A stretch of DNA of 64,000 nt from a virus, in IMG/VR virus record IMGVR_UViG_3300029891_000001, positions 32,001 through 96,000 of that record. One strand, written 5' to 3'. Positions 10,927-62,891 of the stretch are shown in pieces. Under the pieces are notes generated by a model. That model ran no database searches. It worked only from the letters and a program-made list of their open reading frames with translations, and was not told the origin of the DNA. How positions within the stretch are numbered: position 1 is the stretch's first letter; each line of letters begins with the position of its first letter. The position numbers and the translations under genes are program-made.

Positions 10927-11284
10927 AAATTTCCCAATGAGGAAAATCTACGTTAAACCAATTTCCTCCCCATCTTACTTTGATTCCCATCTTAATAGCT
11001 TTCTCAAAAACAAAAGCAGCAAAACGATAAAACCTTTCTAAATCATCCCAATCTATAGGATATGGTACAACATCTACTGCATCAGAAGGTAATTTGTTAT
11101 GATTACTATTTGGCCATCTTAAATGACTTTTACCATTTTCAAACGCTTTATTCTGATCTTCTTCATTTCTAAACCCGCATAAAATAGAACAATCAAAAAT
11201 TTTAATAATTTCATTAAATAAATCTTGTAAATCTTGTGTGCAAGTAGATAAATTATCTTTAGATCTTTTACTAAAATTAGCCAC
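10919..11284 (-). CDS. M15-family peptidase endolysin (L-Ala-D-Glu type); likely GTG start at 11284 (ORF track 11338)
   Basis: FSKRS..NL, CGFR...Q, SNHN..PSDAVDVVPY, RWGGNW..DFPHWE; GGAGG SD before GTG. Confidence 0.9.
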   Translation of the reverse strand: MANFSKRSKDNLSTCTQDLQDLFNEIIKIFDCSILCGFRNEEDQNKAFENGKSHLRWPNSNHNKLPSDAVDVVPYPIDWDDLERFYRFAAFVFEKAIKMGIKVRWGGNWFNVDFPHWEIFK

Positions 11285-14200
11285 CGTAAACACCTCCATC
11301 AATTGATATCCAACGATATGCACCAACTGTTGCTCCATAGTCTATAATATCTAAAGGAGCAGAAGTAGAATAATAAAGACTATCAATAGATATACTATAA
11401 TTTCTAGATTGTTTATTAGAAGAAGCAAATTCCATATAAAATCCAAGGGATTTAGCGTTGTTAAAAAATAGATGATTAATATTCAAATTACAAGTATAAG
11501 TACCAATAATAGCATTCATATTGTATGATCCTAAAGAATTCCACTGTCCTCTGTCAGCAGGATCTCTTACAAAACTAGTAGAAGCTTCTGAAGTACAATA
11601 TAAAGAAAGAGAAACATAACGTCCAAATGAAGTACTATTAGTTACACTAACTTTTAATGTCCCAGAATTAGATAATGATTTCCAAGGCAAAACTGTAGCA
11701 CCTTTTTGTCTAGATATACTATTATAATCCATAAGAAGGCTATCATAATCTTCGACTTGCAATGGTGATGGATCATTAGAAGAATAATACATAGAAAGAG
11801 ATTTTAATGTACATCCACCTTCAGGGTTATCGTTATAAAGTTTAACTCCTATACTTCTAGCATTGTTCCAATCAGAATCAGTAAAATCTCCTATAAAATT
11901 ATAATAATAATCCGTAAGAGGAATACTAACGCTTTTTACTAAATTCCATTGACCTTTATATGGAAAACCAGTACTTGCTTGACTAGTAGCGTATAACTCA
12001 ACTAAAATATCATCTAAAAAATTACTAGTTAGAGAAAATTGCCACATTCCCCAGTCAGTTTTAGAAGAATTTGGCATAATATAACATCCCCAAGCTGTAT
12101 CTTGGCTAGGATCAATTAAGGCTATATATAAATTAGACGCAGAATAATATGGAAGAGGATTAGTGCTGTGCCATCTAAAAAAGTTAGCAACATTCTGCCA
12201 ATCATATTCATTCCATTGATCAGTAAATATTTTATCTATATAAAGATAATCATATGAAAGTGTACCAGATTTTACAATTTGAGCTTTAACGTTAAATCCT
12301 TCTGGGTCAACACTAGAAACTATCATTAAACTTTGAGAATCGGCACTATAAACACTATTATAAGTCTTTAGTTGTGTAGGTAAAATAACTACTAAAGGAG
12401 GAAGAGAATTACCATCCCAGTCTTTATATGGATAATCAAAGGAATTATATCTATTAAATTGAGATTCTCCAGATTCTACATGTTTAGTGAAGTTCCACCC
12501 TGAATTAATTGGTAAACCAGCTTGATGATACCTAAAATAATTCGGAGTCAACACAGCAAAAGAGCTATCTACGGTTTCTCTACCTATAACTAATTTTTTA
12601 CCGCTGCTAGTATTAGAATCTATTCTAATTTCTCCAGCATAAAAACGATTACAAAGTAAAGTATTATAAGTTATAGCAGAACCATCAATAGTACCAGGAG
12701 GAACATTCAAATTAGTAAAAAATTCATTCTCTACAAAATCACTTGCTGAATTCCCCTTTTCTAATTGCCAACAATCAGTAAAATATTTTTTAACAGGAGT
12801 AAAATTAAATAATTTTATATATTTAGTTTTTGCCCATTCGCTAGAACCCAATAAAGAACTTATAGTAGCACTAAATCTTATCCAAGAATTGCCATCTACA
12901 CCTGTTTCTTCTCCTAAATTTGAAAGAGACAAAGTACCATTTTTTAATTCTGAATAATCTTTATTGTATAAATAATATTTAGCATAATTACCATACCCAT
13001 TATCGACATTCGCAGTAGCGCAATAATATGAAAAACAATATTCAGAAGAACTAGAAGTATCATCTAACATAATATAATCTGTAATTACACTTCTTGGGCC
13101 AACACAATAAATAGAATTATTACCCTTAAATTTCTTAACAGAAGATACATGCCCGCCAATAGTATTGGGATTGGCTGAAGAAAAATAAAGAACTTTTCCA
13201 TAAGCAGTATGTTCAAAATTACAATTAAGAATATAATTTTTATTATTATTACGATTAACATTCCCAGTAACTATATACTTAGGTTCACTCATTTCTGATT
13301 CATTATGATTGACATCAAATAAAGTAAGACAATACTTATATCTAGTATTTTCATCTAACCCTGCTTTGTCAACAATCTCTATAGGCCCTTCTATGTCACT
13401 ATTCTGTTTATATTTATCACCGATATTTATGTATGTATCTTTAGTAAAAGATTCTGTAGTTGACATATAACTTTTAGTAGCTAAATAATCTTTATATACA
13501 TCTTCTGGAGTCCAAGTAGATTTTTCTATCCTAATTTGACTTATAGAACCGTTACATACGTCTCCAACTAAATGATTAGAACCAATATGTAATCTATCGG
13601 CTCTACAAGATACTCCAGTAGCAGTACCTTTTAATTCACCATTAATATACAAAGACATTTCAACTTCATTCCAAGCAGCACATAAATGAAACGGCTCTAA
13701 TGCAGAATAAGCAGTATAATGACGAACAGTCTTATCTCTCACACCTTGTTTACATCTTCTATAAGCAAAAGAAGTAGTAGATTGAAGATATGCTAAATAT
13801 TGAAATTGTAATTGACCAATACCAGAAGCAGAAGCATACCATATAACCCTATTGCTAGTCTCTTTCTCGTGAGAATCTTGTAATGGTGAATACCACAATC
13901 TTACAGTTCCAACAACAGAACTTATTATATCGTCTTCAACATCATAATATCTTATAGACTGTCTCGATCTTGGTAACGCACTAGGATAATATTCAAATTG
14001 AACAAAAGGAGTATAATTAGACGTTGATTCTAATTGAACTCCATCTATATAACATCTTCCATAATAACTGCTGTCAAATCCCAAATATACATCACAACTA
14101 GTCTGGGCATCGTTAGTAAATCTTATATTTCTATAATATCTTCTCCATTTATCAGTTAAATTAAATGATTCTGCAAAAGAAGTAATACCATCACTCAATA

Positions 14201-16259: not shown

Positions 16260-19200
16260 AAATGAATAACATTCTTGGGAAAGAAGGATTACTTATTGTA
16301 AAAGTTTTAGTATTCCCATATTGTTTCTCCATTTCTAACCCCACTAAATGCCAATCCCAATTATTTCCTGGATAATAATCAATAGTTACATTTCCATATT
16401 TTGTTTTCCAAAGAGAGGGACGAGCTATATTACCAGAACCAACTACCATTTCATCCCACCAATGAACATAACATTTTCTAAAATCCATTTCTACTTGCAA
16501 ACTACCATCATCTGGTTTATTGGAATGTGTAAGCTCCCATCTACCAACTAATCTAATAACATTAGGATCTCCCTTTTTTTCTTGACCCTCCATCCATTCA
16601 TAAACACCATGATTTTCTGGACCAGTACCATAAACTTGACCATTTGGGATAGATTGTCCAAAAGCTGTTTTTCTTTTAAGATATTTGTTAGTTTGTGCCA
16701 TTGGTCTTCCACTTCTATCTACAAATTCACCACTAAACAATATTATGGGGCAAACTAATAATCTCCCGTTATTATTCGCACCACTACCATATTCTTCAAT
16801 CCAAGTTCTAAGGATATTTGATGGAACAAAATTAAGAATATTACCACCTTTTCTAGTCGCTTTTAAATTAAAATAAAAACTCTTTGGATTTTTGAAATTC
16901 ATATACGAATTTTCTAAATTAGCGAATAACCAATCATTATTGTCATATATTTCTACATATTTAACTACGTTATTTTTATTTACAATCCCAGCATAAGTTA
17001 AAATATGATATTTAATATTGGGAGCTACATATCTGTATAAATCGCCATCTTGTGTACTTCCAACAGTATTATCTTTTATCCAAAATTTAAGTCCTTGATA
17101 ATTATTAGCACTATTATGAATATAAGAAGGGTTATAATACATAAGATTTCTACTAACACCATCTTGTATGACAATACCACGTGCTGTATCTGCTGGATAA
17201 GTAGTTGCTCCAGTTACAGTAGAAGTAAAAGTAGCCCATCTTTTCATCCCAGCAGTATCTAACCAAAAATCAATTTCACTTACAGGCCCTCTTCTAGTAT
17301 AAATATATTTTTCATGTGGATAGGCTAAACTATATGGTTGATCAGATCTATAAGTAAAATCTATTTTTGGACTAATAACATCAATTTCTACATAAAACTT
17401 ACCAAATTCTAAACTTCTATTAGAATTAGTCTCATTTAATTTCATATTCTCTACAACATAATTTCCACCCATAATATCAAAATTAGAAACATAATTATTA
17501 TATGCTCCAATTTGATCAAAAGCTCCCCAAGTATATCTTTTACCAGCTCCCCAAGTCATTTTGTCAAATCCCCAATCAGGATATCCATCTTTGCTTATTC
17601 CAGTTAAAGTATCTACATGCATCGACCCTAACAACTTAACACCGCTACTGTCATTTTCTGATTTAACAGAAAATATTCTTATTTGAATATCACCACTTAC
17701 AAGACAATCAAATTCTATTACAGGAGAAACATTCATAGATTCTTGAGTATATGGATCATAAGCTAAATTAACTAATTCATTAAAATACGCTTCTGTAGTA
17801 TGTGAAGTATAAATACCTCTAATTAAATCAGCCACATACCAACCAGCTGCAGAAGAATATTTTATTATTTCCCCATTTATCATTTTCAAATATCCCTTAG
17901 GTGGAATATGATAAGATAAATTATCTCTAAAAGTAATATTATTAGTTTCTGTTTTAGATAAATCCAATGATAAACTAGTAATCGCTCCGTTATAATATAA
18001 CTTAAAATTCTGAATTGGATGATTATCATATTCACTTAAATCAGGGCTTGGCTTCTTCCAAAAAGCATTTACTGGTTTTACTGGAGAAGTAGATATTTTA
18101 CTTATAAAATTTTTACTGTCGAAAGTATTCGTAATATCAGTAATCCATACATAATTAGTTGTATTTACAACATTTTTAGCATCATCATTAACAGAAATAC
18201 AATCGTCAATTTCTATTTTTGGATGTCCAGCAATAGAGAAATCTAAACTTTTATTTGGATTATTATATTCGCTTATAACATTGTAAGAAACAAAATCTGC
18301 ATGTTCTTGAGAGTTTATAGATGGATCAAATATCAAAGTCATTCTTGGGTGACCAATATAATTAATAGAAGTTGGCTTATAAACACTATTCAAATCTCTA
18401 GAAGAAGATTGAATATATTGATATATAGGGTTATTGGGATTAACAACATCTTTTTGATAAGCTTCTCCCCTTCCCATTTTAGTCCCAGTTCTAGACCCTA
18501 AAACTACACAATCGCTTCTTTGATCGTCTATTTGTAAACCAACTTGCAAATCTAAAATGCTACCAGAAGTATGAACATCGCCAGTATAAAAAGACTCTGA
18601 AGGATGTGAATAATCTTCATCATAAACGATAACTCCGTCTAATGCAATCGGATAATTATAATTAACAGTTCTAATTCTCAATCTATAATCGTCATATCTT
18701 AATCCATATAAAGTTATAACACTTGGGTTTAAATTTATAGAAGGATCTATTCCTTTATAATAAGACCAAGTAGTACTATTATATAAAGAATAATCACCAT
18801 AATTAAATTCTACATCATTATGTCTTAAACTTATATTAACAGTCTCAGTGCCATCTGAACTCCCATATACTGGCCCTACTCTAAATAAAATATCCATCTT
18901 TTTACCAGTTACATCAGCAGAAGCCAAACACAACCCTCCAGCAGGAGCTAAATTATAAGTACCAACAAAACAATGAATATTAGTTTTTTTATCCCAAGCT
19001 CCAGAAGCACAAGCAGTATCGAAATCCCTGTCATTTACATAGGAATATGGGACATCAATTCCATATAGAAATGGATGCGCATTTTCATCAAATCCCCACT
19101 TATAATACCAAGATTTCATTAAATTATCTATTGCATCTTTGTAATATTCCCCAGTATCTATTTTGTATAAATATTCATCATCTGCTTTAGCTTCATCTCC

Positions 19201-20478
19201 CAAAATAATATTTGGATTACCATAATAGTCTTTAGTATCTAACCAATCATCTACAAAAGAATTTATATTTTCAATTTTATAATTTCCAATTATTTTATCA
19301 TAATGATACCCGCTATGAATTTTCCTCTGATAAAAAGTGAATGGATCAATAAAAGAATTTGTCAATAATACTAAATAAGCTTTATATAATTCCCAACCAT
19401 CAAAAGCTCTTGGTTTACTTACTCCATTAACTCTATATTTTACTTCTGTTAAATATCCAGCTTGAATATAATCTAGCGGAGTTGGAGAAACTAAATTAAT
19501 AGAGTCTTTAGTAAAAACACTATAATCTACACAAGTAATCTGTAATATATCTTTTCCGTCTTTAGAATACTTTATATTAAAATCTCTAATTTGCCCAGTA
19601 AATCTTTTTATATATTGATATACACCAGAAGAATTTTTATAACCTTCAGAATATTCTATCATACGATATTTTTTAATTTGCATATCATTAGAAATATTCT
19701 GAAATAGTTCGTTATTTTCATCATAAAAATATCCATTATATGAATAAGGATCACTAGAACTAACTAATGGAACTTCAAAAGTAAATGTAGATTCATAATT
19801 AGAATTAATACTTAATTGTGTTTTTCCAATTCCCAGAACAGTAGATAAAGAAATTGGTAAATTACCATTTCCAGGATTCCCTGTAGATAAAACTGCTGCT
19901 GAAAGAGGAATCTTTTCTGGGGTTACATTCATATCATCAGTTTGCCAAAAAGATATTATCCCTGAATTATATCCATTTAATTGTCTAGATTTATATTTTA
20001 ATTCAAATGAATACCAATTACCACTAGTAAAAGCTATACCAGAATAAGAAGAAGCATAATCAGTATCACTAAGACTAAGATATTTTTCGCTAGTTAAAAA
20101 AGATACACCATTAATCTTAAACTCTGAAACAATTCCCTCTCCCCCGAAATAGAAATCGTATTTAGAAGTATAAGGAGCTCTAAAAAATCCACTAAATTTA
20201 ACTCCCCAATCTTCTACTGCATTTTCGCTAACAAAAGTATCTGGTACACCTTCTCCATACCAGAACTTTATTATCGGGACAACTCCCTCATAAGCAGTAT
20301 CAATCCAGTTTTCAGAATCTACATACCAAGTAGCATTACATCCATTACTTAAAACATTTGTTACTGTATCTGCATATTTTACACAAACAGTCGGAGTAGG
20401 ATATTTATAAAAATACGGTTGTCTTCCCTCTACTGTCGCAAAAAGGGCTTGGTCTGGTACGCTTAATCTTTCTATCAT
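16237..20478 (-). CDS. Tail hub/central tail protein with N-terminal PA14-like domain
   Basis: WGVKFSGFFRAPYTSKYDFYF (PA14-like); hub-like FTGQIRD..ITCVD and AGHPKIEIDDCISV; position after distal tail genes. Confidence 0.65.
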   Translation of the reverse strand: MIERLSVPDQALFATVEGRQPYFYKYPTPTVCVKYADTVTNVLSNGCNATWYVDSENWIDTAYEGVVPIIKFWYGEGVPDTFVSENAVEDWGVKFSGFFRAPYTSKYDFYFGGEGIVSEFKINGVSFLTSEKYLSLSDTDYASSYSGIAFTSGNWYSFELKYKSRQLNGYNSGIISFWQTDDMNVTPEKIPLSAAVLSTGNPGNGNLPISLSTVLGIGKTQLSINSNYESTFTFEVPLVSSSDPYSYNGYFYDENNELFQNISNDMQIKKYRMIEYSEGYKNSSGVYQYIKRFTGQIRDFNIKYSKDGKDILQITCVDYSVFTKDSINLVSPTPLDYIQAGYLTEVKYRVNGVSKPRAFDGWELYKAYLVLLTNSFIDPFTFYQRKIHSGYHYDKIIGNYKIENINSFVDDWLDTKDYYGNPNIILGDEAKADDEYLYKIDTGEYYKDAIDNLMKSWYYKWGFDENAHPFLYGIDVPYSYVNDRDFDTACASGAWDKKTNIHCFVGTYNLAPAGGLCLASADVTGKKMDILFRVGPVYGSSDGTETVNISLRHNDVEFNYGDYSLYNSTTWSYYKGIDPSINLNPSVITLYGLRYDDYRLRIRTVNYNYPIALDGVIVYDEDYSHPSESFYTGDVHTSGSILDLQVGLQIDDQRSDCVVLGSRTGTKMGRGEAYQKDVVNPNNPIYQYIQSSSRDLNSVYKPTSINYIGHPRMTLIFDPSINSQEHADFVSYNVISEYNNPNKSLDFSIAGHPKIEIDDCISVNDDAKNVVNTTNYVWITDITNTFDSKNFISKISTSPVKPVNAFWKKPSPDLSEYDNHPIQNFKLYYNGAITSLSLDLSKTETNNITFRDNLSYHIPPKGYLKMINGEIIKYSSAAGWYVADLIRGIYTSHTTEAYFNELVNLAYDPYTQESMNVSPVIEFDCLVSGDIQIRIFSVKSENDSSGVKLLGSMHVDTLTGISKDGYPDWGFDKMTWGAGKRYTWGAFDQIGAYNNYVSNFDIMGGNYVVENMKLNETNSNRSLEFGKFYVEIDVISPKIDFTYRSDQPYSLAYPHEKYIYTRRGPVSEIDFWLDTAGMKRWATFTSTVTGATTYPADTARGIVIQDGVSRNLMYYNPSYIHNSANNYQGLKFWIKDNTVGSTQDGDLYRYVAPNIKYHILTYAGIVNKNNVVKYVEIYDNNDWLFANLENSYMNFKNPKSFYFNLKATRKGGNILNFVPSNILRTWIEEYGSGANNNGRLLVCPIILFSGEFVDRSGRPMAQTNKYLKRKTAFGQSIPNGQVYGTGPENHGVYEWMEGQEKKGDPNVIRLVGRWELTHSNKPDDGSLQVEMDFRKCYVHWWDEMVVGSGNIARPSLWKTKYGNVTIDYYPGNNWDWHLVGLEMEKQYGNTKTFTISNPSFPRMLFIFGGGYPS

Positions 20479-21000
20479 TTAAACCCTTTCTGGTTGCAAC
20501 TTGACCGAAAAAGAATCATATCTTAATTGACCTCCACTTTTATAATTAGCTTCAAAAGAGATAATTCTTGCCAATTTATATGTTTCTCCAGATATCGAAG
20601 TAGAAGCTTCATAATCCCATCTATCGAATAGATTACCAATATTATTAAATAAAATATACTGTTTTTCACCTTCATGATTTCTCAAATAAGAAACAACGCT
20701 AGAAACTAAAGTATTTTCTAAAGTAAAACTATCCCATTGTAAAATTCTTATTCTAGAATCGAATCCTGCGCTATACCAAATATTGGGGGAGTTAATACAC
20801 TCAAAATTAGTTAAATTTCTAGAATCTTGAGGGTCACAATATACCGGATTTACAGGAAATGTGATGCCATCGCTTCCATCTAAACATCTAAAATACATTC
20901 TCCCACTCGCAGTATCAGTTTCTGACTTTATAGTAAATTTAGCATAGAATTTATCAGAATACTCCGGTGTAGCTTTTCCTCTAAATTTTCCGAATACCAT
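20479..21000 (-). CDS. Distal-tail-like protein, paralog B
   Basis: Clear paralog of 25850-26281 (NP..DPQD, IRIL.WD.F, HEGEKQYI.FN, EASTS, RIISFEA.Y, K.QPE). Confidence 0.6.
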   Translation of the reverse strand: MVFGKFRGKATPEYSDKFYAKFTIKSETDTASGRMYFRCLDGSDGITFPVNPVYCDPQDSRNLTNFECINSPNIWYSAGFDSRIRILQWDSFTLENTLVSSVVSYLRNHEGEKQYILFNNIGNLFDRWDYEASTSISGETYKLARIISFEANYKSGGQLRYDSFSVKLQPERV

Positions 21001-21011: not shown

Positions 21012-22016
21012 TTAAAACTGTTGAAATAACTGTCTATTAAGAACGGTATCTTGATAAGCAGTGAAGGTAATCTTAGCTATTCTTCCAGTTGGAGGAGTCC
21101 CAGTGTATATTACTACACTATCTTTAGGCCATTCATTTTCTGGATAAAAAACTTGAGTTACATTATTAAAACCACCAGTATAATAAGCGATAGCTTTAAT
21201 TAAAGGAGAAAAATTCTTCAAACTGTCTCTGGCTTCTCCAAGGGCTCTATCAAGAAAATATTGATAAACAGAATCAGAAAGTTTTGGATAAAAAGCGTCA
21301 GCAAATTTTTCAGCACTTAAAGTATTATCTTGAATTTTATCAATTGTAATCGCTGCAGTACCGATTTCTGAGCTAGTAATACAACTTGCCGCCAGTTCCG
21401 AAGCACTTATAGCATTTGCCGCAATCTTGGCTGCAGTAATGGCGTCCGTACCTATCTCCGCCGCATCTAACGTGCCATTAACATTCGATAAATCGATACC
21501 CGCCTCGCCCGTAGTAGTCACATCGAGCGTCCGACTTGCCACAGTCGGTCTCAAGGCTAGCATAGTTGATTGATCTACAATCAGAGAATCGTTGTCGGTT
21601 ATCGGGTTCCATGCGTCAATATTCGCGACTTCGGCATAGATTGCCGAATCAATCAGGCCGACGGTATAATTAAAATAATGAGTCGTATATAATGTCGCTG
21701 CAAAGTCATAAGCGGAAACGATTATCATGTATTGACCATCACCGCCAGCACCGTCAATGTCCTGAAACTGGTCATGGAAAATAAGAAAAGTTCCCGATGC
21801 TGAACATTCAGCATCCCCTGAATTGTACCATGCCGAGAATAATGACGTACCTTCTTTATAAGTAACAACCTGCATTGAATCAGGCAATGCGAGAGTTCCA
21901 TCGAGATTCACAGTTTGTACTATGAAAGTCACATCGGTTGTCGGATATATATTATCAGCCTGAACAGCCAGACTACATAATATTAGAATAGCAAATAAAA
22001 TGAATAATTTTCGCAT
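21012..22016 (-). CDS. Signal-peptide protein with phage fibre-type AIT(A/S)xKI repeats (likely ATG at 22016; ORF track 22028)
   Basis: MRKLFILFAILILCSLAVQA signal peptide; GGAG SD; TLDVTTTGEAGID and AITAAKIAANAISASELAASCITSSEIGTAAITIDKI repeats. Confidence 0.7.
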   Translation of the reverse strand: MRKLFILFAILILCSLAVQADNIYPTTDVTFIVQTVNLDGTLALPDSMQVVTYKEGTSLFSAWYNSGDAECSASGTFLIFHDQFQDIDGAGGDGQYMIIVSAYDFAATLYTTHYFNYTVGLIDSAIYAEVANIDAWNPITDNDSLIVDQSTMLALRPTVASRTLDVTTTGEAGIDLSNVNGTLDAAEIGTDAITAAKIAANAISASELAASCITSSEIGTAAITIDKIQDNTLSAEKFADAFYPKLSDSVYQYFLDRALGEARDSLKNFSPLIKAIAYYTGGFNNVTQVFYPENEWPKDSVVIYTGTPPTGRIAKITFTAYQDTVLNRQLFQQF

Positions 22017-25000
22017 ATTAATCTCCAATATAAAAACTTCTTATTTTTCGAGCGCACTTTGCCGAACTGCTAGTCGGAATCCACAAAGATATTTCGTCTA
22101 TCTTAACATTTCCCTTGTAATCATCCGAATGGGGTTCACCAATGTATAAATATTCGAGTGTGTCACTTTCACCATACATTCCAAATATATTTCCAACCCA
22201 AACCGGATCGGGTGAAACTAATGGCGTTCCCGCATCGTTATAGAATATCAATGTCATAGTATCATTACGTTTTTGCATTTCGGCATAATACCATAAAGTC
22301 GTATCGTAAGTATAAGCCACATTCCAATTCCAATCAGTCGAATCCCAGACCACCCCGTCCCAAGTTCTCAGATAATTCCCGGCCTCTGGAGTCGGAACAG
22401 TATCGGGATCCATATATACCATAAAGACGGGATGAACCACATCCGGCCCGCCACCATAAGCTCTGTGGTTGTCAACATCAATGACCATCTTCCTGTGGTA
22501 ATGCCACCAGTATTCAGCACACTCAGCCCCGGAACAGGTGTCATCTGTAATGGTCAGAAAATAGACACCATTCTCAAAATAGCCACCATGAGTATCAAAA
22601 TCGGAATCGAGAGTATCTCCGGCGTCATAATTTTCAAGATCAAAATTAATACATCCCACCCGCATCCTGATCTTGTATTCATCCGGCAAGGTATCGGTTG
22701 ACCTAATGAGCGCAACCGCGCTGAATGGTGTCGAGGTTAGAAACAAATTCCCATCTGCGGCTGAAACCTCACCATTACCGAATAGTCTATAAGTCAACCA
22801 ACCGTCCGTTCCGAAAGTGTCATTAGTTGTTGTGAAATAGGTTGTATCGAAGATTTCAGAATAGAGAAGCGTCCAACCATCATCATCGAATTGAGCCGAG
22901 GCCGGTTCTTCACAAGCGGATTCCTGCGCTACGGGCCAATAGATTTGTGTCAGCCAACTAGCAACGGAGTCCTTGAACTCTAAATACCACATTGCGTTGG
23001 GGTGAAGAGCATCATTATCATATTTACTTAACCTATATCCAAACGAATCATTTTGCGGGTCTGGATTTACCGTCGCATTAAAGAAATCCCATACATAAAA
23101 ATTAGGATAATTATCGGGATCGGGCAAAGTGTCTGTCATCCAAGCAATAAAATCCAACATCCGATCAAATTCATCGGCATCCATGCATGTCTGATAGAAA
23201 CTGCCATACATTACCGGAACCATTGTAAAATAAACGAACTTCTTTTCTGGATAATTAGCGGCAGAATCTCTCATTGTCAAGTACATCGCTTTATAATCGG
23301 CTAAAAGTTGATCGGTCAATCCTCCTATGCAATTAGGCGAACTTCCACGATCAGTAAGAACGAATGGATTTCCAGCAAACATAACCATATCGAAACTGGT
23401 TATATCAACAATGCTGTCGGGGTCTGCATTGGCATCGAACACCGTATCTAATAATAATGTCCCGCCCTTTATGCTGTCTTTAGACATAGAACCCTGCCAA
23501 TAAGACAATAAACTTTCCGGCGGCATCGCATGTGCAGACCAATGGTAATAATCATTATATGGCTGGGGTAACATCCACCCTGCATTGGTTCCGTTAAGAC
23601 TGTCGAATCTGGCGGTTCGCCATCCGGCATAAGCCGCCGAGGGAATAGTATTGCATCTATAATCCCACATCCATATTGTCGTATCATGGGCTTTGCCGAC
23701 ACTATCAAGAACCGACTTTAGGCCCCTACTATAAGGATATGGTGCAAGCAGAAGTGCCCCACCAATACTCATGTGCATATACATAATGGAAATATCCGTA
23801 TCCGGCGGGCCGCCGGTATTTTGTAAAACCAGAGTATCGAACCGAAGATTATTGATAAAAGACATCGTATCGATCGTAGTATCTCCATAGAGAGAAGCAA
23901 TTAGACTACATGGGAAAAATGCCGCACTGTCCGTCTCCGTCCGCGATTCATAATAGGCAGTCATTAATCCTGTTGCCCATCCATCACCATCTGTTGTCGT
24001 ATTTATAATAACTTGACCATAGGCGTTTTTAACATAAACGGAAGCACCGGGCTGAGAATTCATGTCCGCCTTCAATACCAGCACATTCAAGTTTTTCTTC
24101 ACCTTAATATCAGTCTGTCCATAAAGTGAGCTTCGCCATCTGAATCTGTCCCATGCTGTATCCGGGTCAAAATAACAATCAGTAAAGACATGACCACCAA
24201 AAGAACCACTTAAATCACCGGGCCAGGATACATACGAGACTCTGTTATGGTAGCCATTCAGCGTATCAAAGGAGATTATAGTATCCTCATAAATATCATA
24301 ATTTCTTCCACCGGGGTCATAATCTCCAAAGCCATAGGCCGCGAAATTATGCCTTATTACATTATATCTTATATGATATTGGTCTATATTTTCGTCATTG
24401 AGTAATACAAATCCGACACAATGGGTGCTGTCCCAGGTAGTAGTGGTATGCTTGATGGTGTCAATTACGATGGCCGTTATTGTGTTATGCTCAAATATTA
24501 CATTTGAATCAGGGCGGTCAAAGTGTGGAAGGATAAAGAAGCCTCCACCATTACGCCCATAAGCCTTATAATTTATCGTATCATTCACAACAAGAACGGT
24601 AATATCGTTATCGTGAACATAGACATGCTTATTGGGGAACAAATCTCCAAACTCATCGCCCCGTCTGTTCTTCATACCTTTTGCGGAGACATTAAAACCG
24701 TAATAAACGTCCCATCCGCGGTGAGAAACGATTGTATTATTACAAATTTCTACCGGATAATCGGGGTGACCCTGATTTCCCTCAAACTCGATACCCCCAT
24801 CCATTCCATAAAAATCTTCTCCGGCATGTAAATAATTATTATATATTTTTGACCCTGCGCCCCAATGGTTGGCTTGCGGGTCGCCCCCTACCATCAGTCG
24901 TGACAATAATGCAAATGAATTGGCCTGACTCTTACAAAAATTATCAGTTGGGAATGTATACATAAAATTACGGCAGTCAACCTCTACATCATTATCAAAA

Positions 25001-25750
25001 ACAAAAACCTTACCATAAAATACAATTCCCTGGCCAGGAGCGTTTACGACAGTTGTACTGCAAACCTTGAAGGCATAAGAACCAGTATCCGACATTGATA
25101 AGTATGTCGTATCCACGGAAGACAAGTGAATGACTGCGGCATCATAAGTGCATCGGTTCGTATATCCCCAAACATTACTCGTATATGTTCCCCCGTTGAT
25201 TACAATATGATTATTGTTGGTAGCATAGAATGATTTGGGTGTCGTATTCGTAAAAGTTACATCCGCCAGAGTGCTCCAGCAAGGTGCTCGTATTGCCTTA
25301 CCGTTAGAACCATATATGTAGGCAGACATATTTTCAATATAAACGCCCTCGCATCCATTAATGGCTATGCAACGGTTTGCGTTTGACAACGAATCCCCGA
25401 CATGCCTTACAAGACCATTCTTTACAATGATATTCGACATGACATTATTTTTGGGATATTTTTCACCAATCAATATTCCAAAATTACTATTCCCATTACC
25501 AGCACCGAAATCAAGCGTGTCCCCATCAAAGTCGATAAGAACATTCGAGGCATTTTTTGCGACAGCTATACCATTCGTATTAGAAACAATGCGCGAAGAA
25601 CTAAAGGTCACCGTATCTCCAGACACAAGATAATAGGGCAAATCGGCAGACCCGATCACTCTTTGAGTCGCCCCCGCCTGTCCCGCGAATATCAGTATCA
25701 GTAACACGCATAGTATATATTTAAATCTTAACATTATCACTTCCTTCGTC
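21350..25750. other. GC-richer, CpG-rich horizontally acquired cassette within the tail module
   Basis: Spot counts of 60-nt lines reach 28-34 G+C inside (variable, one line 16) versus 17 in the line just left of ~21350; frequent CCG/CGG/TCG, which are rare elsewhere. Confidence 0.75.
22018..25734 (-). CDS. Large secreted multidomain protein: parallel beta-helix-like N-terminal region, SGNH-like middle, beta-sandwich C-terminal region (likely ATG at 25734; ORF track 25752)
   Basis: MLRFKYILCVLLILIFAGQAGA signal peptide; Asn-ladder repeats (IYNNYL, ICNNTI, VHDNDI, FEHNTI); VWDFF...DALHPN resembles the SGNH DxxHPN motif. Confidence 0.65.
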   Translation of the reverse strand: MLRFKYILCVLLILIFAGQAGATQRVIGSADLPYYLVSGDTVTFSSSRIVSNTNGIAVAKNASNVLIDFDGDTLDFGAGNGNSNFGILIGEKYPKNNVMSNIIVKNGLVRHVGDSLSNANRCIAINGCEGVYIENMSAYIYGSNGKAIRAPCWSTLADVTFTNTTPKSFYATNNNHIVINGGTYTSNVWGYTNRCTYDAAVIHLSSVDTTYLSMSDTGSYAFKVCSTTVVNAPGQGIVFYGKVFVFDNDVEVDCRNFMYTFPTDNFCKSQANSFALLSRLMVGGDPQANHWGAGSKIYNNYLHAGEDFYGMDGGIEFEGNQGHPDYPVEICNNTIVSHRGWDVYYGFNVSAKGMKNRRGDEFGDLFPNKHVYVHDNDITVLVVNDTINYKAYGRNGGGFFILPHFDRPDSNVIFEHNTITAIVIDTIKHTTTTWDSTHCVGFVLLNDENIDQYHIRYNVIRHNFAAYGFGDYDPGGRNYDIYEDTIISFDTLNGYHNRVSYVSWPGDLSGSFGGHVFTDCYFDPDTAWDRFRWRSSLYGQTDIKVKKNLNVLVLKADMNSQPGASVYVKNAYGQVIINTTTDGDGWATGLMTAYYESRTETDSAAFFPCSLIASLYGDTTIDTMSFINNLRFDTLVLQNTGGPPDTDISIMYMHMSIGGALLLAPYPYSRGLKSVLDSVGKAHDTTIWMWDYRCNTIPSAAYAGWRTARFDSLNGTNAGWMLPQPYNDYYHWSAHAMPPESLLSYWQGSMSKDSIKGGTLLLDTVFDANADPDSIVDITSFDMVMFAGNPFVLTDRGSSPNCIGGLTDQLLADYKAMYLTMRDSAANYPEKKFVYFTMVPVMYGSFYQTCMDADEFDRMLDFIAWMTDTLPDPDNYPNFYVWDFFNATVNPDPQNDSFGYRLSKYDNDALHPNAMWYLEFKDSVASWLTQIYWPVAQESACEEPASAQFDDDGWTLLYSEIFDTTYFTTTNDTFGTDGWLTYRLFGNGEVSAADGNLFLTSTPFSAVALIRSTDTLPDEYKIRMRVGCINFDLENYDAGDTLDSDFDTHGGYFENGVYFLTITDDTCSGAECAEYWWHYHRKMVIDVDNHRAYGGGPDVVHPVFMVYMDPDTVPTPEAGNYLRTWDGVVWDSTDWNWNVAYTYDTTLWYYAEMQKRNDTMTLIFYNDAGTPLVSPDPVWVGNIFGMYGESDTLEYLYIGEPHSDDYKGNVKIDEISLWIPTSSSAKCARKIRSFYIGD

Positions 25751-25849
25751 AAAAGTCACTATCTCAGCATTACAAGTTTATACATTAACATTACGAACTA
25801 AGATAAAAAGAATTAAAATAATTAAATATATGAATAATTTTAATTTCAT

Positions 25850-26281
25850 TTATGGTTCCTCTGGCTGTATTTTAACAGCAAAATAATCATATTTTAAAGA
25901 ACTTCCTCTAGCATATTTGGCTTCAAAAGATATAATTCTACCAACACTATATGTAACCCCTCCAGCAGAAGTAGAAGCTTCTGACGGCCATCTACTATTT
26001 ATATCTTCTAAAGTATTAAATTTAATATACTGTTTTTCTCCCTCATGTTCTCTAAAATATCCCTCCATTTGTTTCATATAATTATCTGTTATATCAAACT
26101 TATCCCATACTAAAATTCTGATAGCATCATCAAAAATCTTTTTCTGCCATATAGAAGAACCATGTAAAACTCCTAATTCATTTATTTTAGCATAATCTTG
26201 TGGGTCATAAGTAAGTGGGTTAATTGGACAAGATAAAGAACTAGCTCCATCTGGACTTCTAAAATATACTCTAATAGACAT
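25850..26281 (-). CDS. Distal-tail-like protein, paralog A
   Basis: Immediately downstream of the tape measure; paralog of 20479-21000. Confidence 0.6.
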   Translation of the reverse strand: MSIRVYFRSPDGASSLSCPINPLTYDPQDYAKINELGVLHGSSIWQKKIFDDAIRILVWDKFDITDNYMKQMEGYFREHEGEKQYIKFNTLEDINSRWPSEASTSAGGVTYSVGRIISFEAKYARGSSLKYDYFAVKIQPEEP

Positions 26282-26289: not shown

Positions 26290-29200
26290 CTATATAACAT
26301 TATATCCTCTAGTCCTTCCAACAGCTAATCCGAAATTAATATTATTTTCTATAGTTTTGATAACTGCAGTGGCTATTTCATCTGGGTTAGAATTATTCCC
26401 ATTAATAGTAATATTAACCTGATTCCCTGTCCCAAATTGACCAGAAAAAGCAGGGATGTTATATCTAGTAGGAGCATTAAATATCGCCTGATCTAATTGT
26501 TCTAAAGCTAAAGTATTTCTTTCTATAGCTCTAGTATTCTCATCTAAAGAGATAGATGATGGTTTCTCTGGTTCTTTACCCTTCCCAAATAAAGAACCGA
26601 ATAACCCGCCTATAAGACTTCCACCCAATATTCCTAAAGGCCCACCAAATATTCCCAATGATTCGAATAATGATTTACCCAAAGTAGCTTCTAATCCTGC
26701 AGGCCCAAACATTCCCCCAAAACTAGCACCTTTAAGAGCAGAAGTATTCCCTTCAAATAATCCAGCAGTTATAGCTTGCCCAAGACTGGCTGCAGCAATC
26801 GCTAAACCACTTCTTAAAGCTTTAGCACCCTCACTTAATTCTGTCTTTACTTTTTCAAAACCCTCTTCTACTTTTTCAGCAGAAGATCCTACAACACTAT
26901 CTAAATCACTAAAAGTATCCATAAGAGACATAGCATAACTAGACATTTGTCTTGATGGTACATCTGACATTTGTTTTTCTAATGATTCCATAATAGCTTT
27001 AACATATTCTTGCGTTTCTTTAAACGGTGGAATCCCTCCATATTCATCTACTCTACCAGGGCCAGCGTTATAAGCAGCTAAAGCTAATTCTAAATTTTTA
27101 TATTTGTCATATTGTTCTTTAAAATATTTAGTCCCACCCATAATATTTTGATATGGATCAAGTCTATTATCAACTCCCAAATCTACTGCTGTTTTAGGCA
27201 TTAATTGCATTAAACCTCGTGCACCTACACTAGATCCTGCTCTTGGGTCGAAATTAGATTCTCTTTTTATAATACCTTTTATTATCGCTTCTGGAACATC
27301 ATATGTTTTAGAAGCTTCTTTTATTATATCATCAAATTCGCTAGTAATTTCTTTACCAATATATTTATAGCCTAACCCAGAAGCATCTTCTTGTTTACGG
27401 GCCATCATTATTTCTCTTTGAGTAGTTAAAAAATCATTAAGCATACGCCAATATTCTGTTAAAAATCTGACATGTTCTGCCTTAAGAGCTTCTGTATAAT
27501 CCCCTATAAAACCACCAGTAGATTTTTCAAATATTTGTGCGAATTCTTGACCTAAAGTAGAAGTACCAATAGAAATATTAGATAAAGATTCTGCGAATCT
27601 AGAAGCTAATTTATCCCAATAAGCTTTTCCAACGCTATCAAACAACTTATTGAATATTTGTTTTATTTCATATATCCCTGCTTTATAATAATTTAATTCA
27701 TTTCTAACAACTTTAAGCCTATATTCAGCATCTTGTATGGCATTTCTATCTCCATCTCTTCTGGCTTCTTGTAGTTCTTTTTCTGCATCTGCTAAATCTC
27801 TATTTAATTCATATCTTTTTTCGCTACCAGTTTCTATATTCTCTGGAATAGAAGAAATAACATCTTTAACAGATTTTCTAAAAGTGTCTATACCATAATT
27901 CATAGAATCGAATATTTTAGATAATCTTATATTAGACATTTTTTCAAGAAGTTTAACCATAGATTTAAATTTGCTCTCATTGGCCTTTAAAACAGCTTGA
28001 AACTTTTCAGTAGCATCCATTTGATTCGCTAGAGAAGTCTCCATATCATATTGGGTATTGATTAATTCTTTTTCTAACTTTTCTCTAACAGAAGCTTTTC
28101 TACTTAATTTCTCATATATATTAGAAGTAAATTCTAATCCCCTCAATACAATATATTCAAGACCAGAAATATTCTGTGTTTCTAAAAATCTCTCTTTCAA
28201 TAAGTTATTTCTTTTTTTCTCTTCCTGAGTCAAATTATAAGTCAAATTAGCTAATTCTTTAATAATTTTTCTTTCGCTACTTAAAGCCTGTAAACTAGAT
28301 TGAATAATTATTAATTCCCTATCTAATGAATCAATACTATTTTCTCTATCTGTAGCAATCTTCTCATATAACTCTGGATAATCTAAAAGAAATTTTTTCA
28401 TTTCTTCATCAGAGGTATCGTCTTTTAATTTAGTTATAGTTTCATTATAAAGAGATTGTTTTTTAGTAAGATCATCAATAGTATTCCCAATTTCTATTTG
28501 TATCTCAAGAGCAGTTTTTAATTGATCTATAGATTCTTTACCAAAAAATTCTAATTGATCTGCAACCCCCGTCCCGAACGGAGAAGTTTTTTGTAATTTA
28601 ATAAATTGATTATATAAATCTTTTGCACTTTCTTTAAGTCCTTTAATTTTATCTTGAATTGCTATTATTTCTTTAGATGGAGCTTGGCCAATTTTCCATT
28701 CTTTATCACCTAGTGGTTCAATTTCAAAAAGGCTAACAATTTCGTCTTGTAACTTCGTTATGTCACTTCGTATTTCAGTATCTTTTAACGTAATCTTCCC
28801 AAAAATACCAGCAATGGAATTTCTAACATTTAATGCAGCTTCATTAACCATCTTAGTTGTAAATTCTACAAACATACTAGGAATTTTACTTTTATCTGGT
28901 TCTTTTTCTAAAACCATTAAAAGATCAATATAAGTATTTATAACTGCATTTAATTTACCTGTAATTTTTTCTGAATCTATAAAACCTAAAAATTCTTCTT
29001 TCTGTTCTTTGGTTATTTGCTTTTCGTCTTCCATCTTATCAAACATTTTTTCTATTTCTTCTATAACTAAATTCGATTTCATTTTAATAGAAGACAAATT
29101 AAGTTGAAATTTAGTTAATATATCCATACTGTCTTCGCCAAATAAATCTGTAAAAGATCTTTTAGATTTTTTTAAACTATAAGTATATTCTCCAATTTTA

Positions 29201-31911
29201 GAAGTATTTAATCCTCCAAAAGTAGCCTTAGCTAAATCTCTCCAATTTTTAGAACTAGAGAGTGCATCCTCAGAGAACTTTTCCATAGTTTTATTAAATG
29301 CTTTATAGGATTCGTTAGCTTCTAAAATATTTTTTATATTAGCTACAACTCCCTTCTCAGTTTCAAGATCAGCTATTCTGGATTTCAAAACCATTTCATA
29401 TGCCTTTTTTCTTTCTTCAGTAGCTTCTTTGAGAACTTTAAGTTCTTCTTTATTACTTTCTATAGTTTTTCTTACAGCTGTATCTAAAATATCATAAGCA
29501 TTTGCCTGATTAATAATTGCTTTTCTTGTTTCTGAAACTGCTTCGTTTAATTCAATAGATTGACCAGTATATACATCTAAAACCGTATTAACCTTTTTCA
29601 AAGTATCATTATAATCTTTTGTACCAATACCCAAATCATTGAGTTGTTTAATATAATCCTTAACAATAGATAAATTTTTATCATAAATATCATTTTGACT
29701 TTCTAAACTTTTTACTTCTCTTTCTGTAGTCAATAATCTTTCTTTGGCACTTTCCCCGATTTCATTGTAATCAGTTATTTGTCTTCTAGATTTTTTGCCA
29801 AATAATGCCCAAAGACCAACAAGAACACCAACTGCTAAAGCAACTCCACTTAAAATTCCAGCATAAGTAGCCATAGATGCTGACAACCCCGTTAAAGTAG
29901 CCCCCTGTTTAGAAAGAAAAGAATTAGTAATAGCCACAGAAGAAGCTAAGGATTTTTGTGAAGCAGCCGCCCCCAAAGAACTGAAAGTCATATTAGTAAG
30001 AGCTTTTCCAATAATCTTTAATAAAAATTCTAATGAAATAAAAACTCCTTTAACAACTAAAAAAACACCAAGAAAAGTAGCGAATGCACCTACTATACCA
30101 CCAAAAATAGTTTTTAGCGGTTTAAGAAAATTCAAAAATTTATTAAAAATACTTACCATATTAGTTATTGGAACAAGTAAGGTACTACCAATTCTTTCTC
30201 CAAATTCTGATATAACTACTTTAAAACTTTCCCAAGATTTAGCAATAGTTTCTACTTCTAATTGATTAGCCCTTAATGCTTCTGTAGAAGCTTTTTGTGC
30301 CGTTATAACAGATTTTTGTTTAACTGCATAATTATCCATTAAAGCAACAAAATCAGAATATCTTCTTATTCCTCCTAAAGTAACAGCAATATTAGCTTTT
30401 GTAACATCATCTAAAGTTCCCCATTTCACAGATAAATCATCTAATATATCATCTAAATCTCTGAAAGTATAAGCATTTTGTAACACAGCTATATTAATAC
30501 CTTCAAATACGTCTATAACTTCTTTTCTTGGTAACCTGGCGAACATAGTCTTTAATGACTGTCCAATAGCAGTACCACTTTTTCTAGTTACAGCATTGAT
30601 AGCGGAAACATAACCAGTTAAATCATCAATATCGACACCAACAACTCTAGCTGCTGCACCAACAATCTTCATAGCATTGGCTAAATCTTTGGCTTCTACT
30701 GGAAAAGCAGCTTGTACTGCCATCCATTTAGCAATAACTTGTGTAGATTCTTCTATAGCTACACCATAAGTAAAAATCGCAGAAGTAAGAGCTTCTGTAA
30801 CTTCTTTTGCATCCATTTCAATCGCGTTAACACCCAACAAAGTAGCTTTAGTAGTTTCTAAGGTTTGAGATACATTAAGTCCCATCTGTGCCCATACTTG
30901 CATTGATCTGCCAACTTCTAGAGCAGATACAGAATATTGATACCCAAGTTCATAAGCACTATCTTTAAGTTCTTTGTTGGCATCTACTGTTTCTGGCAAA
31001 ACCTTATTAAGTCTTGCCATAACCAATTCCATATCAGTAAATACTTTCATAGAATCACGAAGAGCTTCGATAGCACCACGCATAGCATAAAAAGCTACAC
31101 GATATCTAATAAGTTTAGATATGGCAATTCCAATTCTATCATTTATTTGTTCTTGTTCTTTTGCAAGCTTTTCTTTTTCTACTCTAGCTTCTTTTTCTCG
31201 TTTGGTAGTATCTATAATACTGTCACGATAATTATTTACAGAATTAAAAGCTATATCCCATTCTTTATAAATACCCTCTCCAGCCGCCGTAGAACGAAGT
31301 TTCATATTGCCTTGGTCTTGTTGTATCCCACTTATTGTAATATAATTATTAATATCTTTTTGTACTTGTCTGATCCTATCAACAATTTTTAATCTTTCTT
31401 GATCTGTTTTAACGTTTTTATATAAAACTTGAGCATAATCTTTTGTAGCATTGAGAATTTGAGTAGCCATTACTAATTGATTACGATAAAGAGTCTGCGA
31501 TTGCATTAATCTGTCTATAATACTTTTAGGGAATATTCTGTCTCCACCAGTATCGGCAGACATTTTCATATATTCTCTAAGTTCTTTTGCTTTATCTACT
31601 ATTTCAGAAATAGTCTTTTTATCTAATTGTTCCGAAAATGTTGATCTGGCACCATGAATAGCAGCAGTGGCTTCTTTCTTGGGCATAGATCTTTCCCAAT
31701 CGCCAAAATAATTCTTTATTCGTGTACCAAAATTTTGAGCAACATCTCCAGTCTGAATCATTTTATTTATAACATTGTCAAAAGATTTTCTAGTATCTTT
31801 GTCCATCTCAGAAATAGCTTCTCTGACAATATTACAAGAACGAGTTGGCTTATCGCTATTAATAGCATCCCAAATTAAATTTATACCAACATCAAATGAT
31901 TCTGCTGCCAT
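26290..31911 (-). CDS. Tape measure protein (TP901-type core) with lytic transglycosylase (SLT) domain
   Basis: 1873 aa, mostly helical; TP901-like TRKSGTAIGQSLKTMFARL; SLT motifs KRESNF, GARGLMQLMP, AAYNAGPG, ETQEYV. Confidence 0.92.
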   Translation of the reverse strand: MAAESFDVGINLIWDAINSDKPTRSCNIVREAISEMDKDTRKSFDNVINKMIQTGDVAQNFGTRIKNYFGDWERSMPKKEATAAIHGARSTFSEQLDKKTISEIVDKAKELREYMKMSADTGGDRIFPKSIIDRLMQSQTLYRNQLVMATQILNATKDYAQVLYKNVKTDQERLKIVDRIRQVQKDINNYITISGIQQDQGNMKLRSTAAGEGIYKEWDIAFNSVNNYRDSIIDTTKREKEARVEKEKLAKEQEQINDRIGIAISKLIRYRVAFYAMRGAIEALRDSMKVFTDMELVMARLNKVLPETVDANKELKDSAYELGYQYSVSALEVGRSMQVWAQMGLNVSQTLETTKATLLGVNAIEMDAKEVTEALTSAIFTYGVAIEESTQVIAKWMAVQAAFPVEAKDLANAMKIVGAAARVVGVDIDDLTGYVSAINAVTRKSGTAIGQSLKTMFARLPRKEVIDVFEGINIAVLQNAYTFRDLDDILDDLSVKWGTLDDVTKANIAVTLGGIRRYSDFVALMDNYAVKQKSVITAQKASTEALRANQLEVETIAKSWESFKVVISEFGERIGSTLLVPITNMVSIFNKFLNFLKPLKTIFGGIVGAFATFLGVFLVVKGVFISLEFLLKIIGKALTNMTFSSLGAAASQKSLASSVAITNSFLSKQGATLTGLSASMATYAGILSGVALAVGVLVGLWALFGKKSRRQITDYNEIGESAKERLLTTEREVKSLESQNDIYDKNLSIVKDYIKQLNDLGIGTKDYNDTLKKVNTVLDVYTGQSIELNEAVSETRKAIINQANAYDILDTAVRKTIESNKEELKVLKEATEERKKAYEMVLKSRIADLETEKGVVANIKNILEANESYKAFNKTMEKFSEDALSSSKNWRDLAKATFGGLNTSKIGEYTYSLKKSKRSFTDLFGEDSMDILTKFQLNLSSIKMKSNLVIEEIEKMFDKMEDEKQITKEQKEEFLGFIDSEKITGKLNAVINTYIDLLMVLEKEPDKSKIPSMFVEFTTKMVNEAALNVRNSIAGIFGKITLKDTEIRSDITKLQDEIVSLFEIEPLGDKEWKIGQAPSKEIIAIQDKIKGLKESAKDLYNQFIKLQKTSPFGTGVADQLEFFGKESIDQLKTALEIQIEIGNTIDDLTKKQSLYNETITKLKDDTSDEEMKKFLLDYPELYEKIATDRENSIDSLDRELIIIQSSLQALSSERKIIKELANLTYNLTQEEKKRNNLLKERFLETQNISGLEYIVLRGLEFTSNIYEKLSRKASVREKLEKELINTQYDMETSLANQMDATEKFQAVLKANESKFKSMVKLLEKMSNIRLSKIFDSMNYGIDTFRKSVKDVISSIPENIETGSEKRYELNRDLADAEKELQEARRDGDRNAIQDAEYRLKVVRNELNYYKAGIYEIKQIFNKLFDSVGKAYWDKLASRFAESLSNISIGTSTLGQEFAQIFEKSTGGFIGDYTEALKAEHVRFLTEYWRMLNDFLTTQREIMMARKQEDASGLGYKYIGKEITSEFDDIIKEASKTYDVPEAIIKGIIKRESNFDPRAGSSVGARGLMQLMPKTAVDLGVDNRLDPYQNIMGGTKYFKEQYDKYKNLELALAAYNAGPGRVDEYGGIPPFKETQEYVKAIMESLEKQMSDVPSRQMSSYAMSLMDTFSDLDSVVGSSAEKVEEGFEKVKTELSEGAKALRSGLAIAAASLGQAITAGLFEGNTSALKGASFGGMFGPAGLEATLGKSLFESLGIFGGPLGILGGSLIGGLFGSLFGKGKEPEKPSSISLDENTRAIERNTLALEQLDQAIFNAPTRYNIPAFSGQFGTGNQVNITINGNNSNPDEIATAVIKTIENNINFGLAVGRTRGYNVI

Positions 31912-62872: not shown

Positions 62873-62891
62873 ATAAATACCTTTCTTATTT

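Follow-up and report, generated by a model that had tools for sequence, protein, structure and literature searches.

Particles of tailed phages are held to be built entirely in the cytoplasm, and phage depolymerases are held to be unmodified. Sec-exported proteins of tailed phages are known, such as signal-arrest-release (SAR) endolysins, the Rz/Rz1 spanins, Lom and Bor of lambda and Llp of T5, and the Lom gene also lies among tail genes. Here we describe a pair of adjacent genes, called the cassette hereafter, in a 64,000-nucleotide stretch of DNA (the window) which corresponds to bases 32001-96000 of one 111,438-bp virus record of an uncultured phage (IMG/VR IMGVR_UViG_3300029891_000001). 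The pair lies in the late tail gene operon, and both of its products combine a predicted export signal with an excess of the tripeptide D-(S/T)-(A/I/L/V/M/T), the motif of the general O-glycosylation system of Bacteroidota (PMC12871550). In that system about half of the non-cytoplasmic proteins bear the motif, and occupancy of the sites is almost complete; when a motif is engineered into an exported protein it becomes glycosylated, and glycosylation functions across species (PMC12871550).

We consider it probable, at roughly 0.6, that the cassette is a Sec-exported, host-O-glycosylated polysaccharide-degrading module which works outside the cytoplasm. The arguments come from the N-terminal signals, the motif statistics, the folds, the structure of the cassette and the homologues in bacteria and in other phages. 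Coordinates written with two dots refer to features on the minus strand of the window.

Export signals of the two proteins

The large gene (22018..25734 including the stop codon; 1238 aa, P0003) lies in an open reading frame (ORF) spanning 22018-25752 and likely starts at the ATG at 25734, with AAGGAAG upstream. The small gene (21012..22016 including the stop codon; 334 aa, P0006) lies in ORF 21012-22028, likely starts at the ATG at 22016, and begins 1 nt past the stop of the large gene. AGGA/GGAG sits 7-8 nt upstream of each start.

An initial annotation of this DNA had assigned classical signal peptides to both proteins, and both N-termini do display a K/R n-region, a hydrophobic core of 12-15 residues and a small-x-small site. 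Signal peptides and cut sites were called by a heuristic on these sequence features. In the large protein, the predicted signal peptide covers residues 1-22 (25669..25734) with a cut between AGA and TQ, and the homologues P0004 and L035 keep a sequence-divergent signal peptide. In the small protein, it covers residues 1-20 (21957..22016) with a cut between VQA and DN; the homologue P0007 has another hydrophobic core and the same mature start. The closest homologues (P0004, P0007) have kept the mature N-terminus but not the sequence of the core, and we therefore read these N-termini as signal peptides that are probably cleaved. Lipoprotein signals were considered and rejected: the Cys found in each core is not conserved in P0004/P0007 and the residue preceding it is atypical.

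Alternatively, the N-termini could act as uncleaved anchors. Tethered to the inner membrane and facing the periplasm, the two proteins would then remodel or mask the envelope, exclude superinfecting phages or destroy receptors from within, and would never be soluble outside the cell. Cores of 12-15 residues could serve as anchors, the esterase- and glycanase-like domains described below would suit the modification of surface sugars, and phage exclusion proteins such as SieA of P22, as well as SAR endolysins, use such membrane topologies. However, both N-termini obey the small-x-small rule, a conserved mature start behind a drifting core is what cleaved signal peptides display, and a place in a late operon would be odd for an exclusion function. 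This reading appears improbable to us.

The large protein contains 20 cysteines; seven of these, a C-x4-C pair in its C-terminal module among them, are kept in all close homologues. This content fits oxidative folding. We also observed that in many homologues, Zixibacteria ones included (P0004, P0097, L002, L011, L017, L026 and others), Gln directly follows the predicted cut after Ala. Gln after the cut is typical of Bacteroidetes signal peptidase I substrates (the Q-rule).

A sequon excess in the cassette proteins

The same annotation had counted by hand about 31 sequons in the large protein, against about 6 expected, and 7 in the small one. These counts hold when the expectation is taken from composition-preserving shuffles: 31 D-[ST]-[AILVMT] against 6.0+-2.3 in the large protein (z 10.8, about 5 times chance) and 7 against 2.0 in the small one (z 3.7). 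None of the other 47 ORFs of the window exceeds z 2.2, and in the whole genome there is no further ORF with both an export signal and a sequon excess.

The excess was dissected position by position. At position 1, D alone is raised (E, N, Q, G, K, S, T, A and P give z from -1.2 to 1.8). The second position favours S (z 4.2) and T (z 10.3) and no other residue, and the third shows a significant rise for each of I, L, M, T and V (z 2.5-7.5), with no more than a trend for A (3 vs 1.16, z 1.6). With A as a trend, this pattern agrees with the sequon published for general O-glycosylation in Bacteroidota (PMC12871550). An artefact of composition or GC content was rejected as the source of the excess: the shuffles preserve composition, and the control tripeptides are flat (8 vs 11.3 for D[ST] followed by any other residue, 6 vs 6.1 for the reversed motif). 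Moreover, 21 of the 31 sequons of the large protein share alignment columns with those of a homologue of 49% identity.

In the small protein the excess is located in the C-terminal third (4 vs 0.53, z 4.9), which is resident in this phage, while the imported fibre part carries 3 sequons against 1.75 expected (see below). Among 85 homologues of the small protein, the pooled ratio of observed to expected sequons is 1.80 in the 25 that have a signal peptide and 0.62 in the 60 that do not (P 5e-5). These 60 fibre-like homologues (within P0007-P0095) are in fact depleted in sequons, with 137 observed against 220 expected.

Modular architecture of the two proteins

The large protein had been described as beta-helix/esterase-like and the small one as carrying fibre-type repeats. 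The beta-helix and the repeats are borne out by models, structural matches and profile searches, and the esterase is a candidate. An exhaustive profile search divides the large protein into three modules, each of which is also found alone or recombined, almost always behind a signal peptide; with the linker, this makes four domains that are separately enriched in sequons.

Module A (about residues 23-540, 24115..25668; 10 sequons vs 1.9) is modelled by AlphaFold2 as a right-handed beta-helix, with a predicted local distance difference test score (pLDDT) of 84 and a predicted template modelling score (pTM) of 0.86. Its Foldseek matches are the tailspikes of HK620, Sf6 and Det7 and fucoidan and alginate lyases, and viral exopolysaccharide depolymerases (Acinetobacter APK14 gp49) are also among its nearest structures; the likeness is one of fold only (9-12% identity and TM about 0.3 with the tailspike depolymerases). 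In the model the helix starts right after the signal peptide, so that the large protein has no N-terminal particle-binding domain. A beta-sandwich linker domain follows, delimited by the strand pattern of the model (about residues 541-640, 23815..24114; 4 vs 0.74).

Module B (about residues 641-935, 22930..23814; 9 vs 1.56) is also found by itself, in signal-peptide proteins some 300 aa long. It is a candidate SGNH-like alpha/beta esterase in view of its motifs and of a single Foldseek match, the carbohydrate esterase 6yp6 of phage phi24B. The motifs, compared with the block I serine and the block V D-x-x-H of SGNH/GDSL esterases, are HMSIG at 654 and DALHPN (D-x-x-H-P-N) at 908. Five sequences all have the residues of H-x-S-x-G and of H-P-N, whereas the Asp varies among them.

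Module C (about residues 936-1238, 22021..22929; 8 vs 1.82) is a concanavalin-like jelly roll modelled with pLDDT >90, which matches GH16 laminarinases and agarases (E 4e-8) and an alginate lyase in Foldseek. The conserved catalytic strand of GH16, E-x-D-x-x-E, is absent from it. The sole match to this pattern, ESDTLE at 1189, is unconserved in homologues and overlaps a gained sequon, and the family has invariant E, H, R, K and D residues elsewhere. A sequence search of the PDB gave zero matches for the two proteins.

In the small protein, an N-domain (residues 21-150, 21567..21956) is, according to BLASTP, common only to proteins that open with a signal peptide. The fibre-type repeats which follow (residues 151-245, 21282..21566) are common to many tail-fibre-like proteins without signal peptide, and residues 182-244 match tail-fibre PHROGs (phrog_892, E 1.9e-9). 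For the sequon-rich C-terminal part (21015..21416), BLASTP found no homologue among the fetched proteins.

Bacterial homologues and the gain of sequons

The taxonomy of the best hits places the nearest bacterial homologues in the Fibrobacterota-Chlorobiota-Bacteroidota (FCB) group, in Zixibacteria. Module C shares 50-55% identity with proteins that Zixibacteria and related FCB lineages secrete, and of the 285 genomes in the Zixibacteria phylum set, 88 contain the beta-helix family. All Zixibacteria/FCB homologues with the same modules (e.g. P0097, P0099, L002-L028, L039-L071) have signal peptides, and at the C-terminus the bacterial copies carry a type IX sorting domain or a dockerin-like tail. 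A hidden Markov model (HMM) of the sorting domain, built from these homologues, matches the positive controls P0097 and P0099 at E 1e-27, and it has no match in P0003, P0004, P0005, P0250, P0006, P0007 and P0196. Some of the latter, and a protein encoded at L035:90-4157, end in short basic-hydrophobic C-termini recalling the last strand of the sorting domain (P0005, P0196, P0250 and L035 with GRIIK, VMIKK, LKLKK and GGIIK among them); the large protein of the window and P0004 end in IGD and GGD, respectively.

The jelly-roll region carries 8-9 sequons in the three phage-lineage copies. The 28 bacterial homologues average 0.82 there, with no more than 2 in any of them, and bear non-sequon tripeptides at the phage sequon columns. 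More generally, homologues with a type IX sorting domain have a mean z of 2.0 and 1 of 31 reaches z>=5, vs 24 of the 84 without it. Since bacterial copies are sequon-poor, the excess tracks the signal peptide and homologues with sorting domains are rarely dense, we would say, from these sequence comparisons, that selection has added sequons to the copies that are exported and phage-associated (phage carriage of P0004 and P0005 being putative).

Two other readings meet this comparison. According to the first, the tripeptide excess would have nothing to do with periplasmic O-glycosylation, and would reflect a motif of the fold or a target of cytoplasmic glycosyltransferases of the phage. The phage does encode many glycosyltransferases, and the Zixibacteria beta-helix homologues are themselves mildly raised (mean z 2.2), partly through a conserved D-T-L near the N-terminus. 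Yet the same folds occur in bacteria without excess, four unrelated folds have it in common, it goes with the signal peptide and not with the fold, the cytoplasmic particle proteins of the same phage have none, and it agrees with the published sequon position by position, A at position 3 as a trend only. Of all the readings considered here, we hold this one to be the least probable.

According to the second, the cassette would be host-benefit cargo, a bacterial secreted glycanase gene helping the infected cell to feed on external polysaccharide, with no role in infection. All three modules are indeed common in secreted Zixibacteria proteins, and the cassette is foreign in composition and mobile. 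On the other hand, the type IX sorting domain, without which a product would not get out of the cell, has been lost from the phage copies. They have also gained about 10 times the sequon density of bacterial copies, they are paired with a fibre-like protein in a combination that recurs, and they sit in a late structural operon. We hold such a role to be very unlikely.

A mobile cassette in the tail operon

The initial annotation had placed the two proteins inside the tail operon. Their position between tail genes is as stated, but composition indicates a recent foreign insert and not a fixed part of the operon. The GC content at third codon positions (GC3) is 0.14-0.16 in the resident structural genes vs 0.40 throughout the large gene. 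In the small gene it is 0.28-0.52 over the first ~200 codons and then drops to 0.14; this profile therefore places one recombination junction inside the fibre repeats. The second junction is upstream of the large gene, within the spacer. On this compositional evidence, the pair is a recently imported, mobile cassette inserted between two paralogous tail genes, a 143-aa gene upstream (25850..26281) and a 173-aa gene downstream (20479..21000), whose products are 46% identical. As the small protein is sequon-rich in its resident C-terminal part, the phage would already have had an exported protein here before the swap. A promoter and terminator scan found no convincing signal at the cassette ends. 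The -7 motif of Bacteroidota, TAnnTTTG, found 87 times vs 98 expected, gave no sign of separate expression either.

A relative of this phage, G001, is a 117-kb IMG/VR phage with the sheath-like, neck, tape measure and large tail genes in common. After its tape measure gene there is a single gene of the 143/173 type and no cassette. G001 has its own pair of signal-peptide, sequon-dense proteins (L001:10001-15558), one of 1157 aa with z 9.1, the other of 691 aa with z 5.4 and a disaggregatase-type beta-helix repeat. Unlike in the window, this pair sits between homologues of a 2107-aa structural gene and the neck genes. In a metagenome scan, one 4.3-kb contig (GC 0.43) was found with the closest full-length homologue of the large protein, followed by an overlapping signal-peptide ORF that opens with sequons; the pairing thus recurs, which suggests that the pair travels as a unit. 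Finally, in L134, a 46,154-bp IMG/VR viral contig, positions 355-15124 encode four signal-peptide proteins of 426, 893, 734 and 968 aa, whose sequon z values are 7.3, 7.4, 7.4 and 10.9; the 968-aa protein contains 37 sites. The four genes surround a gene matching 'internal virion protein with endolysin domain', and one of them matches a tail-fibre PHROG. No match was found for P0003, P0006 and P0012 by tblastn in 50,697 deposited phage genomes, nor in the IMG/VR scans with P0003, P0096, the jelly-roll alignment and P0119.

These observations are also relevant to a different end location. The two proteins could be particle parts, a receptor-binding fibre and a tailspike, which would be folded and glycosylated in the periplasm and would attach to finished, fibre-less particles only in the lysate or once the holin has opened the inner membrane. 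This reading differs from ours only in end location and essentiality, and we regard it as possible, though clearly less likely. The genes are embedded in the late tail operon, neither a promoter nor a terminator signal was found where the cassette begins and ends, the beta-helix fold is that of tailspikes, and the small-protein family is fibre-like, with a conserved N-domain, fibre repeats and a variable C-terminus. The cassette junction falls in repeats, as in fibre mosaics, both related phages retain at least one such pair, and in L134 all four fibre- or spike-like genes by the internal virion protein gene have signal peptides and dense sequons. Furthermore, addition to particles in vitro is known to work for the tailspikes of P22 and the fibres of T4. 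Against this, the large protein lacks an N-terminal particle-binding domain in the model, the position of the cassette differs between the two related phages and the site is empty in G001, two conserved large tail proteins without signal peptide could be the host-recognition gear, and a literature search found no paper on such a route.

A wider version of this idea, tentative in our opinion, would be that phages of FCB hosts, probably of Zixibacteria, build host-recognition gear in the periplasm through Sec export and host O-glycans at dozens of selected sequons, and join it at lysis to particles built in the cytoplasm; the motif system would then also exist in Zixibacteria.

The probable host

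An FCB-like diderm host had been proposed earlier for this phage. The FCB part agrees with the nearest bacterial homologues, which belong to this group, but within it Zixibacteria appear likelier than Bacteroidota proper. We examined samples of three Zixibacteria genomes, L072-L091 (G006), L114-L123 (G172) and L124-L133 (G041), with a heuristic signal-peptide classifier. In ORFs with a signal peptide, the ratio of observed to expected sequons is 1.73 (228 vs 131.9), 1.77 and 2.21, respectively (P 2e-14, 3e-5 and 5e-12). In the same samples, four control tripeptides give 0.57-1.08 and ORFs without signal peptide 1.06-1.11. Small control samples from Pirellulales (0.67), Krumholzibacteriia (0.86) and 50 kb of E. 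coli (0.81) display no sequon excess. This suggests, as far as sequence statistics go, that the Bacteroidota-type sequon is also used in Zixibacteria; a 2025 review names Bacteroidota alone for the system (PMC12871550).

Translation signals were also considered. A Shine-Dalgarno core precedes 39% of the phage ORFs, and 69% in G001, vs 5% in the background, with a G peak at -11 to -8. Strong Shine-Dalgarno use fits Bacteroidia/Flavobacteriia hosts poorly. Because the gene pool of all three modules and the motif excess in signal-peptide ORFs are both found in Zixibacteria, the host is predicted to be an FCB-group diderm, more likely a member of Zixibacteria than of Bacteroidota proper. Homologues of the phage DegT aminotransferase were taxonomically uninformative.

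A model for the cassette

The initial annotation had proposed that the phage routes these proteins through host secretion and glycosylation. The proposal is strengthened here: the signals are present, and the excess matches the sequon, tracks the signal peptide and was gained in comparison with bacteria. In the model that we favour, both proteins would be made late in infection with cleavable Sec signal peptides and would pass through the inner membrane of the host, a diderm of the FCB group and most likely one of the Zixibacteria. They would fold in the periplasm with disulfides, and the general O-glycosylation machinery of the host would glycosylate most of the sites, about 31 in the large protein and about 7 in the small one. 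Having no type IX sorting domain, both would wait in the periplasm until lysis. The large protein would combine a beta-helix resembling that of tailspikes with a probable esterase of sugars and with a jelly roll acting as glycanase or lyase, and the small fibre-like protein would be its partner. Lysis would then release a glycan-coated, protease-resistant depolymerase complex that strips or de-esterifies the surface polysaccharide of the host, so that progeny would be freed, receptors on debris destroyed and neighbouring cells opened to infection. The small protein may also dock the complex onto particles.

As to the final location, we lean slightly towards a free or loosely attached complex rather than a part of the particle, because the cassette is accessory and found at variable positions, no particle-binding domain was recognized and other tail proteins are conserved. 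Docking on particles stays a strong reading, because the small-protein family is fibre-built, every fibre-like gene of L134 has a signal peptide and P22 spikes can be added outside cells.

Several points weigh against this model. The late tail operon position, the fibre repeats and the recombination within them would suit a part of the particle equally well. In the 285 genomes of the Zixibacteria phylum set we found neither a related sheath-like gene nor a related prophage, and the Zixibacteria jelly-roll homologues are themselves sequon-poor. On the enzymatic side, no module of either protein has a match in Pfam, and module B, although it displays an alternating beta/alpha pattern, is poorly modelled (pLDDT 30-70). 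Finally, the O-oligosaccharyltransferase of the Bacteroidota system has yet to be discovered (PMC12871550).

Genomic context

The phage (whole-phage GC 0.296; the record is ~70% complete by CheckV estimate) is a novel tailed phage, the best match of its large terminase among deposited sequences being merely 30% identical. The terminase, portal and major head genes are on the minus strand, like the gene of the 1873-aa tape measure protein (26290..31911), which has a lytic transglycosylase domain (Pfam PhageMin_Tail and SLT; phrog_4211). Past the latter, the order is the 143-aa gene, the cassette pair, the 173-aa gene and the genes of the two large tail proteins of 1413 and 1660 aa (11277..20478), which have no signal peptide, are conserved in G001 and are alternative candidates for host recognition. 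The 2107-aa structural gene lies at 38683-45006 of the window, and its counterpart in G001 consists of two adjacent genes (1038 and 228 aa).

A glycosyltransferase and amino-sugar cluster, recognized by Pfam matches, starts in the window (61904..64000), extends past it and reaches about genome position 102,800 (L032:905-9765), all on the strand of the structural operon. Its Pfam content comprises five to six glycosyltransferases of GT1/GT4 type (PF00534 with four matches above the cut-off and one below), two DegT-family aminotransferases of the perosamine-synthetase-like kind and a PglD-like hexapeptide acetyltransferase. The cluster might serve the modification of DNA, of the particle or of a lipid-linked glycan. 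That its enzymes could alter the lipid-linked glycan which the host transfers to the sequon-rich proteins is pure conjecture.

Comparison with known systems

The presence of export signals and the roughly tenfold sequon density vs bacterial homologues, if selected as we propose, argue that glycosylation of these phage proteins is functional. The glycan could bring protease resistance, self-protection from the proteins' own enzyme activity or camouflage with host glycan. If the proteins end on particles, this would be a new assembly route and, the glycan being host-specific, a new layer of host-range control. The motif excess in Zixibacteria would for its part extend the range of a glycosylation system whose descriptions have until now been limited to Bacteroidota, and offer a handle on the phages of an uncultured phylum, and the combined signature of motif and signal peptide could become a host-prediction marker for FCB phages.

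In the literature search we found no paper on Sec-exported or O-glycosylated fibres or depolymerases of tailed phages, and a crassvirus structure paper mentions neither signal peptides nor glycosylation. The exported phage proteins known so far, SAR endolysins, spanins, Lom, Bor and Llp, are small lysis or exclusion proteins, whereas those of the cassette are fibre- or spike-like. To our knowledge no member of this set is glycosylated or fibre- or spike-like, and none has a sequence or fold relation to the cassette. Of the traits of phage morons, the cassette shows the foreign composition (GC3 0.40 vs 0.15), while the scan of its ends found no convincing promoter or terminator of its own.

Tailspike depolymerases such as those of HK620, Sf6, Det7 and APK14 (gp49) resemble the large protein by a right-handed beta-helix of similar size, their place in a tail gene module and a likely polysaccharide substrate; the large protein differs from them by its signal peptide, its additional esterase-like and jelly-roll modules and the lack of a particle-binding domain. 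Module C shares the jelly-roll fold of GH16 glycoside hydrolases without their conserved catalytic strand. The secreted multi-domain proteins of Zixibacteria and other FCB bacteria are true homologues with signal peptides, but theirs have sorting domains or dockerin-like tails and few sequons. Similarly, type IX secretion cargo is set apart from the cassette proteins, which have no C-terminal sorting domain.

With the O-glycosylation substrates of Bacteroidota, the cassette proteins share a predicted export signal and the exact three-residue motif (PMC12871550). Unlike these substrates they are encoded by a phage, whose host is probably outside Bacteroidota; the motif density of the large protein, about 5 times chance, also exceeds the ~1.7-2.2 times of the sampled Zixibacteria signal-peptide proteins. 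Each ingredient of the cassette is thus known from one or another of these systems. What is new is not export alone but the combination of export, sequons and fibre or depolymerase folds.

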